Source: Schmidtea polychroa
Taxonomy: Eukaryota
Assembly: GCA_044892525.1 (NCBI GenBank)
Contig: CM097885.1
Span: 27,654,001 to 27,718,000, forward strand
DNA length: 64,000 nucleotides
Direction of reading: 5' to 3'
This document shows, one piece after another, positions 11,545 to 14,500 of this stretch. Numbering within the stretch: the stretch's first letter is position 1; every line of letters starts with the position of its first letter. The position numbers were made by a program, and so were the translations under genes. The notes beneath the pieces are model-generated. The model was not told the origin of the DNA. It ran no database searches and saw only the letters and a program-made list of their open reading frames with translations.

Positions 11545-14500
11545 TCTCTTTTATGTCTCTTTTCACAGGTCTGATCGAAATTTAAGTGTAACAATGTATA
11601 GGCAGAATTTAATTCTCTACAACACGGCGCAATTACAATTTCAGTTTGGTGCTTTGTGTGTAATGCACACATGTTTTTACAATAAATTTGTATTTTTTCG
11701 CGCGCTTAACGTTATTTTCTTGGATTTTTATTCATTTAATATATAGATAAAATTTAATTTTCTATAAAATAGCTTGATTAAAAATTATGTCTCGTATGTT
11801 GTGTGTAATACACACATGTTTTTACGATAAATTTGTATTTTTCATACAGTTAACGTAATTTTCTTAGGATTTTATTCATATAATATATAGATAAAATTTA
11901 ATTTTCTATAAAATGGATTGATTAGAAATTATGTATCTTGTTTTGTGTGTAATACACACATGTTTTTACGATAAATTTGTATTTATTATACGTTAACGTA
12001 ATTTCCTTGGATATTTATTCATATATTATATAGATAAAATTTAATTTTCTATAAAATGGATTGATCTAGAGTTTAAAATGTTGTATTATTTTATTACTTT
12101 GTTGCAATATTTTTATTATTTTAGTTACAATATTCTTTTTAATTTGTTGTCCATCTTCGAAATAATGTATTGATTTGTCTTAATTACCATTATTATTTTA
12201 TTACTTTGTTGCAATATTTTTATTATTTTAGTTACAATTTGATAAATATTTTACAACTTTGTTGAAATTTTCTGAAATATGTTACTACTTTGTTGTAATA
12301 TTTTCTAATCTTCTTACAATTTGCTTAAATATTTTACAACTGTTGAAAATTTATCTGAAATATGTTATTACTTTGTTACAATTTTATGAAAACGTTATTA
12401 CTGTTTTACAATTTGATGAAAAATGATATTACTTTGTGGGTTCATCACATTATTTTTATTAAATTATTATGAAAATGTTAAATAAGTCAACTTTAGCGTC
12501 AAAATGTGTTTTAAAATAAATTAATTTTTTCCTACCCTTCCTTGATTTTGATTGGTTAGAATTTGTTCCTATGAACAATAATAATCTATAAACAATAATA
12601 ATCTATAAACAATAATCAATCATTAGTCACATTTAACAAATAGTTAACCTTTAAAAATGAATTCTTTAATAGAAAACGTTATGAATGTCCGAGAAAAAAT
12701 TCAGAAATTTGGTAAATTTTAATTTATTTATTAATTAATTTATTAATTAATTTAGATAATATTAATGAAGACAATTTAAAATCTAAGATTAAAGGAAATT
12801 TGAAAAGAAAAAGTAAACATAATTTTAAATTTATTGATTTAATTAATTAATAATTTAGGTAATACGAATAAAGAAAAAAATTATGTCAATGTGTCAATAA
12901 ATCGAAATGAAAATTTACAATGTAAGTATTGATTACTTTTTATAATTTAAAGGAAATTTAATATAATTTTTTATTTAAGTAAATGTTAATATTTTTAATT
13001 TAGTAAATTTTTATTTTTTAGTAAATAAAATTTGTAAAATAATAATAATTTGCAAATTTTTGCGTAAACATTTACTAAAATATTTCATTTAAATTATATT
13101 TTTTTATTAAATTTTTATTTTATAGGTATACTTTACCCAAATTATTGTTCATCGAAAGAACATGATAATAATTGCCATTCTATAATGGAGAATTATTACA
13201 CAAAAAAATATTATAATAAAACTTATTTTATATGTCCCGTATGTAAGACTAGTGACCCCGTAACATATAGCGTTTTTTATAATAAACATAAAAATCATTT
13301 AGATAGGTTTAATTTTAAAAAAGATAGTGTTTTTAAAAGACCCTCAACTATAGAAAAAAATAATAAAAATAAAAAAATTAAATTAGATACTTCTTCTTTT
13401 GAATCCCAGGTCGGATTGTCTTTTGTGGAATCCAATGATGGATTGGTTGTCGAATCCCATGATGGATTGGTTGTTGAATCCCAGGTCGGATTAGATAATA
13501 TTTCCCTTGATTCTTGGGATGGATTAAATATAATACAAATAGGGGGTAATGTTCCCATAATACAAAAAGATCTAAGGGGTACCCATCAAATATTAAGTTT
13601 AAATACTAGCGACTTAAATATAAAGGAAATAATATTTCCTGAACAATTAATTATAAAATTACGAGATATTATTAACGAATTAGGCTCCGTCAAAATTCAA
13701 TTCGGAATAACAATCGAATTTGAAAAAGATGGGGAAATAAAGGTTAATAATATTTCGAATTACGCAAAACTTTTAACTGCCTCATTTTTTGACGAAGGCA
13801 TTAGGGAACTAAACGAGAAAATAAGTAATATCACAGAGTTAGGAAGTAGCTGGATCATAAAAAAAAATAACAGAAATTCACTTCACCATAACAAAGATAA
13901 GTAGGCTAAGTAGATTAAGTGGTAGGAGTTTCATTGAACTACCTACTTATCTAAAAAATAAATATTGTTTAATTAATATAAAAAACACCGATGATTCATG
14001 TTTTTTATATAGCATTTTAGCTATTTTAAAATATGATGAGGTTAGTAGTTATGCTAGAAATAGGACATCCAGTTATAATTTATCTGAGTTAATATATAAT
14101 CCATTGGACTTACCCATGAAATTAAAAGATATTAGAAAATTCGAGGCCAAAAATCCTGGTTTAATAATTAACGTTTTTTCTTATGACAATAACAAACAAT
14201 TAATAGATAATTACGTTTTAAAACACCCACATTTAGACATTATACATCGTTCCAAAGTTTTAAATGGAACTGTAATTAATTTACTATTATTAAATAAAGG
14301 GAACAATTTCCATTACGTTGCTATAAGCAATTTAAATAGGTTATTGAATTGTGGTATCAACACTACTTGTCCTACACGCATACGTTCATTATGGTGCCAT
14401 CGGTGTTTGAATGGGTTTAATAATAGAAACGCACTAGAAAAACATGAAATATTATGCAAACGTAATCAATTAGGAACAACTCTTTATACTTTCCCTCAAA

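Follow-up and report, generated by a model that had tools for sequence, protein, structure and literature searches.

How pPolB, the protein-primed B-type DNA polymerase of a palindromic element in Schmidtea polychroa obtains its N-terminus is the question raised by this locus, which lies within the window, the whole 64,000-nt stretch of DNA analysed here. The element (3619..18428) carries one pPolB gene per arm; all features of the right-arm gene given below lie on the forward strand. A Cys/His-rich domain occupies 13126..13340 (C-x6-C-x4-H-x3-C, then C-x2-C...H-x2-H), with its first half upstream of ATG 13185. There is no ATG in 13068-13184, yet the codons at 13128-13184, which stand ahead of the first ATG of their frame, match the domain in many relatives, and the start of the protein must therefore come from upstream.

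The three GT..AG segments proposed as introns by the first-pass annotation were recovered at 12712-12755, 12813-12858 and 12922-13125 (44, 46 and 204 nt), all in phase 1, and joining the exons gave an open frame whose peptides were identical to those in that annotation. Stops occur in all three frames within each of the three predicted introns, and none is found among the junction codons. The introns are T-rich, with AT shares of 95.5, 91.3 and 90.2% for introns 1, 2 and 3, and the leader exons are A-rich, the AT share of the exons being 71-84%. Leader exon 1 (12657..12711) is followed by exon 2 (12756..12812, 57 nt), which encodes a lysine-rich peptide and could be skipped in frame, and by exon 3 (12859..12921, 63 nt), which ends in a base needed for the codon of the conserved first Cys; both exon 2 and exon 3 are symmetric (1-1). 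None of the leader peptides matched any stored protein. As noted earlier, 8847-9353 is an exact mirror of 12681..13187, and it belongs to a mirrored second copy of the gene, complete with its leader, on the reverse strand of the left arm (5036..9377).

The start codon had been placed at ATG 12681, which is in the right frame; the in-frame ATG 12657, eight codons upstream in the context AAAAATG, is the likelier start, and translation probably begins there. Upstream of it are TATAAA words at 12587 and 12604 and a reversed CCAAT-box-like word at 12548..12557, a putative promoter element. Among 77 loci this 10-mer was found only in two intron-bearing relatives, L008 and L024 (twice in each), and every one of these copies lies <300 nt upstream of the polymerase start. 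Introns 1 and 2 resemble host introns in size and composition, as judged by comparison with a single host-like example of 45 nt. Of the two host introns (45 and 48 nt) that had been cited for this likeness, the 45-nt phase-1 intron was confirmed at 52100-52144, and a 48-nt candidate at 62466 was listed by a pattern scan of the window.

We then considered what the protein family indicates about the junction after intron 3. Among 185 stored proteins, 52 domain matches were obtained, and the C-H-C part was present in 27 and absent in the other 25, mostly because the gene call begins at an inner Met. In 26 of the 27 domains an extra Cys stands 4-6 residues upstream of the C-H-C part; the query was without it. 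The junction codon formed by removal of intron 3 supplies this conserved Cys, with the same spacing as in P0121 and P0013; the unspliced DNA of the window encodes Gly at this place. Removing the introns thus yields both an open frame and the conserved residue, the latter bearing on intron 3 only, and the Cys is supporting rather than decisive because, once the acceptor is fixed, it takes no more than a final T in the exon. The nearest two relatives (P0188 and P0198; P0202; 60-61%) have cluster members whose gene calls are longer and contain a Phe-rich, intron-like read-through that stops two codons before the same Cys, which at the protein level looks like a sign of the same intron acceptor. 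Further, 6 of 12 short relatives stop just past the domain in G-K, G-N or G-T and then hydrophobic residues, as may happen when a gene call runs into a phase-1 donor.

The Cys/His domain itself probably forms two zinc sites. It matched no Pfam family above the cut-off, its matches in the Atlas search were no higher than 0.81, and the fold searches with the domain of a homologue gave weak matches (best Z 3.6, rmsd 3.6 over 53 residues; Foldseek E ≥0.4, mostly C2H2 fingers). No match was returned when residues 1-110 of the N-terminal frame were searched against proteins of 134-427 aa, and neither of the window's two proteins had an exact-sequence match in the stored protein collection.

A metagenome scan returned 76 loci, of which 10 close ones extend upstream of the core, and a viral-contig scan returned one distant locus. 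Five of the ten close loci (L008, L011, L012, L018 and L024) carry 15 GT-AG segments of 40-53 nt and 81-96% AT, chosen by eye and then checked, all in phase 1 and all leaving open frames. Four others (L001, L002, L009 and L010) are uninterrupted and start at a Met that precedes the first Cys by 2-5 residues, and L013 has no clear start. In L009, a T-rich stretch at 270-320 ends in TTTAG just before the ATG and is possibly a 5' UTR intron. A 19-nt promoter word recurs in L008, whose first exon is short like that of the window and whose exon 2 has the same short layout; the first 17 nt of intron 1, a low-complexity stretch, are identical in the two. L008 and L012 have a common intron site in a conserved stretch where the window is uninterrupted, and L011 contains three 66-nt exons, two of which are alike at 53/66 positions.

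Using splice matrices trained on the relatives only (15 training donors), we ranked 20 donors and 21 acceptors in the leader. The donors 12922 (GTAAGT) and 12712 ranked 1 and 2 of 20, and the acceptors 12755, 12858 and 13125 ranked 1, 3 and 5 of 21; within intron 3, the rival acceptors 13003 and 13021 scored above 13125, and 12979 slightly below it. The intron 2 donor at 12813 is weak, ranking 10 of 20 with 1.4 bits, under every one of the 15 training donors (lowest 4.6), and the acceptor of this intron reached 9.0 bits. Apart from that donor, the predicted introns show the GT-AG ends with donor and acceptor consensus of U2-type spliceosomal introns. Size and composition were the sole grounds for discounting self-splicing introns.

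With a 2-bit cut-off, the path of the first-pass annotation was lost and skipping of exon 2 had the top mean score (15.2 bits per intron). Together with the weak donor at 12813 and the preserved frame, this speaks for a partial model in which intron 3 is real and exon 2 is normally skipped through one 147-nt intron (12712-12858), or in which isoforms are mixed. Against it, acceptor 12755 ranks first of 21 and requires donor 12813 to escape a stop, A and G are more frequent in exon 2 than on either side of it, and L008 has the same short exon 2 layout, so that we regard habitual skipping or a mixture as improbable. Judged from the DNA, intron 3 is very probably spliced, intron 1 is almost as strong a candidate, and intron 2 is likely to be spliced, with less assurance than the other two.

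To gauge how readily such a leader arises by chance, we shuffled it. Two short intron-like segments alone appeared in 223 of 2000 shuffles (11%), and a single intron joining some ATG to the fixed acceptor 13125 in 1147/2000 and 921/2000 shuffles under two nulls. The full three-intron path, with two short introns, the last intron and an open frame, appeared in 0/2000 shuffles under each of the two nulls, with a filter fixed after the data had been seen. Of the paths that combine short introns with the last one, the three-intron path alone yields the Cys. These values bear on the reading in which nothing is spliced, the protein starts at ATG 13185 and the GT-AG segments have arisen by chance in upstream DNA that is rich in AT. 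Many relatives are indeed called from the equivalent Met, and short GT-AG segments are not rare at such composition, but the conserved Cys/His codons upstream of 13185 would then stay untranslated, and both the 0/2000 result and the 15 phase-1 segments of the relatives would go unexplained; we consider this reading very unlikely.

Coverage of the leader was examined in 4 of 13 sequencing runs, whose RNA nature is a guess. In run X1, the depth in five bins from 12607 to 13451 was 2.9, 3.4, 0.43, 20 and 96, with the minimum in the bin inside intron 3; such a dip, with no contig to join its two sides, is no evidence of splicing. Run X6 had no dip inside intron 3, and runs X2 and X3 left the leader uncovered. 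No spliced junction was seen among the 15 joints listed, all of them from X6, with 12715-12759 left out as a repeat. In the same run, 28,205 contigs matched the gene with widely spread likeness, numbers that fit a repeated, varied family. Upstream of the leader, at 12100-12606, run X1 (if RNA, which is again a guess) had a depth of 38-53 over degenerate 31-nt and 52-nt repeats without an ORF.

The FastTree tree has all five intron-bearing loci within a single group of 8 rows, to which the uninterrupted L009 also belongs; P0001 and P0002 share a different group with the window. The five loci are not independent, because all fall in one subclade; there are few independent cases, yet the trait spans at least two subclades. 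As the intron-bearing relatives, which come from other data sets, carry similar introns at 42-52% identity, the trait looks inherited within the pPolB clade and not like a fresh adaptation of the palindromic element. Recent gain in the element or its host, for example by introner insertion after integration, could draw on the introners of dinoflagellate Maverick-Polinton-like elements (PMC11957031) and on the four relatives without coding-region introns, but the common sites, phase and intron 1 start across relatives at ~50% protein identity and the hints that the closest relatives have this acceptor too leave it scarcely credible. The proposal of spliceosomal introns at the pPolB 5' end is well supported by comparison. 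Its further suggestion, that the polymerase had adapted to host splicing in contrast to an uninterrupted neighbouring pPolB, was overstated, because the two pPolBs are 27% identical and lie apart in the tree, and because similar introns occur in relatives.

In the mechanism that we favour and hold to be quite likely, the host spliceosome would join three leader exons, which would equip the terminal protein, vOTU and polymerase that follow with a start, with a basic peptide and with the first ligand of what is probably a zinc site. The pPolB gene would be a transcript of host RNA polymerase II with a 5' end assembled by the host spliceosome. The N-terminal Cys/His domain would take its first cysteine from the leader exons, which would also bring the start codon and a short peptide rich in lysine, and the usual Polinton order of terminal protein, vOTU, exonuclease and polymerase would follow. 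The introns would be ordinary short AT-rich GT-AG introns inherited within the clade, and their common phase would most likely reflect an old phase-1 intron multiplied by duplication of intron-exon units, in which case exons can be added or skipped in frame. The phase-1 rule is seen in pPolB genes only, because a separate small spliced gene of L021 has intron phases 2 and 0 from its coordinates. This small gene (996-1400, forward strand) has the same Cys/His domain and lies just downstream of pPolB in L021, and protease and DJR-capsid-like genes follow it (2432-4114, reverse strand).

The spliced frame had been said to continue in frame into the ORF at 13185. The join is open; that ORF ends at 13904, out of frame with the core at 13861-16998. 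An A-run at 13858..13868 breaks the frame in both arms of the assembled copy. Relatives are colinear across the break near 13860, for which reason a fourth intron was rejected as its cause, and the length of the A-run varies among contigs of runs X1 (2) and X6 (10); these two observations together point to copy-specific damage or an assembly error. Being frame-broken, the assembled copy may make no polymerase.

The break interrupts a terminal-protein-like (D1) domain near its end (13560..13900, approximate limits). The pPolB core (13861..16998; PF03175, E 5e-31) comprises vOTU-like Cys/His residues, an exonuclease, an HNH-like insert and polymerase motifs A-C, with the catalytic motifs of protein-primed PolB present and the invariant C47 and H151 in the vOTU (D2) domain. 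As in Polintons/Mavericks, D1 and D2 stand ahead of the core, the terminal-protein fold pattern and structure matches being those of the homologue P0133 and not of the window protein. In the N-terminal part of P0133, the predicted strand-helix order is as described for the terminal-protein domain in 10.1101/2024.03.18.585575, and its best structure matches are adintovirus and MELD-virus proteins.

The carrier is 14,810 bp long, has Polinton-type ends (AGTAG...CTACT) and is flanked by 6-bp target-site duplications AGTGAT (forward strand, 3613..3618 and 18429..18434). The two arms agree at 98.6% across 6809 nt, with 5548 nt of this length at 100%, and both pPolB genes point outwards, with no other gene there. 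The ORFs >150 aa in 3619-18428 are two pPolB frames per arm only; neither these nor a six-frame read of the centre and upstream parts revealed an rve integrase, and capsid, ATPase and protease genes were not found among the ORFs of 3619-18428. The inverted ends and the 6-bp duplication are those of a Polinton, and the element departs from the intact intronless ORFs of vertebrate Mavericks in its predicted introns and in the frame break near 13860. A pure assembly fold-back artefact is unlikely, given the differing flanks, the target-site duplication, the unique centre and the 16 mismatches and 7 gaps between the arms. In the centre (9900-11990), a possible origin or hairpin region, tandem repeats of 144 nt occur in both arms, alongside 21/22-nt repeats and a ~900-nt unique spacer; 31-nt tandem repeats are located near both ends of the palindrome.

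Fuller Polintons exist in the clade, as the capsid-like and protease genes of its member L021 show, and the palindrome reads as a fold-back derivative. The carrier would be a defective derivative of a same-clade Polinton, inserted by an integrase supplied in trans. The neighbouring Polinton at 21748..36580 (14,833 bp, target-site duplication GTGATT) has an integrase, a DJR capsid gene and an uninterrupted pPolB, which is one open frame at 22109-26539 just as first described, and is a possible helper for the palindrome. It belongs to a different lineage, with its pPolB in a different part of the tree, and derivation of the palindrome from it was rejected on the 27% identity and the lack of common end sequence beyond AGTAG. 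The two elements are close in length (14,810 and 14,833 bp), both begin with AGTAG, and GTGAT occurs in both target duplications. The integrase of the neighbouring Polinton (32345-33763, reverse strand) has a phospholipase-A2-like domain (PF08398) ahead of its rve core.

We compared the locus with known systems. Like the Polinton/Maverick (adintovirus) pPolB, the window gene has a PF03175 core, a vOTU-type Cys/His pair and a terminal-protein-like fold with Ser beside Gly before the last strand (10.1101/2024.03.18.585575, PMC8502044); unlike it, the start codon and first Cys come from predicted spliced leader exons, and the N-terminal Cys/His domain is without a Pfam match. In adenovirus, the first codons of the HAdV-37 E2B pTP come from a 9-nt upstream exon (PMC2397415), and the window gene resembles it as a nuclear protein-primed replication gene that takes its first codons from a tiny upstream exon; the adenovirus gene has one far-upstream exon, whereas the window has three close exons, host-sized phase-1 introns and a fused TP-vOTU-pol gene. 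The introner-bearing dinoflagellate Maverick-Polinton-like elements also harbour spliceosomal-type introns (PMC11957031); those introners are mostly recent, transposon-made and post-integration, whereas the window introns look inherited, phase-restricted and confined to the 5' part of pPolB. Group I introns are known in cryptophyte PLVs (PMC12220804). Autonomous Polintons are given as 13-25 kb with TIRs of 100-1500 bp and 5-8 bp TSDs (PMC10748475), and the palindrome is like them in size, AG..CT ends, 6-bp TSD and pPolB; it is unlike them in that arms of ~7 kb make a palindrome of nearly the whole element, and in having no integrase, ATPase, protease or capsid gene.

PMC8097293 describes intact vertebrate Mavericks as intronless, a large protist survey (PMC10120064) assumes no introns, and both surveys call Polinton genes with prokaryotic gene finders on this intronless assumption. 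Our literature search brought up no description of Polintons with inherited, phase-1 spliced leaders on pPolB; Repbase and Kapitonov and Jurka 2006 were outside its scope and may annotate such exons. If the clade splices its pPolB, the N-termini of these proteins are being truncated in databases, and the gene calls of the closest relatives do start at an inner Met or read through intron-like DNA. Expression would further be bound to splicing in the host nucleus, and the architecture of pPolB would gain a Cys/His domain that is small and as yet unnamed. The strict restriction to phase 1 hints at modularity on the level of exons within a virus-like genome. A bolder and rather doubtful extension is that this Polinton clade builds its polymerase N-terminus from interchangeable phase-1 exon cassettes, as exon shuffling in a virus-like genome, with alternative splicing able to determine the presence or absence of the first zinc ligand and the palindrome being a unit-length snap-back satellite that has its own spliced polymerase and borrows integrase and capsid.

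Several minor features were also recorded. In L006, a dual-specificity phosphatase ORF (2926-3267, reverse strand; PF00782, E 2e-21) near a clade pPolB is possible cargo. On the reverse strand of the window, a small two-exon gene at 51990-52300 encodes a secreted-looking Cys/Ala-rich peptide of ~87 aa, and a second, diverged copy of this gene is located ~1.2 kb away at ~50900-51100. Near the Polinton, Rab-like and ubiquitin-like fragments, named by eye, lie beside retroelement-like ORFs at 19236-19900 and 37901-39025, and two copies of a 300-nt stretch lie at 19590 and 38726.
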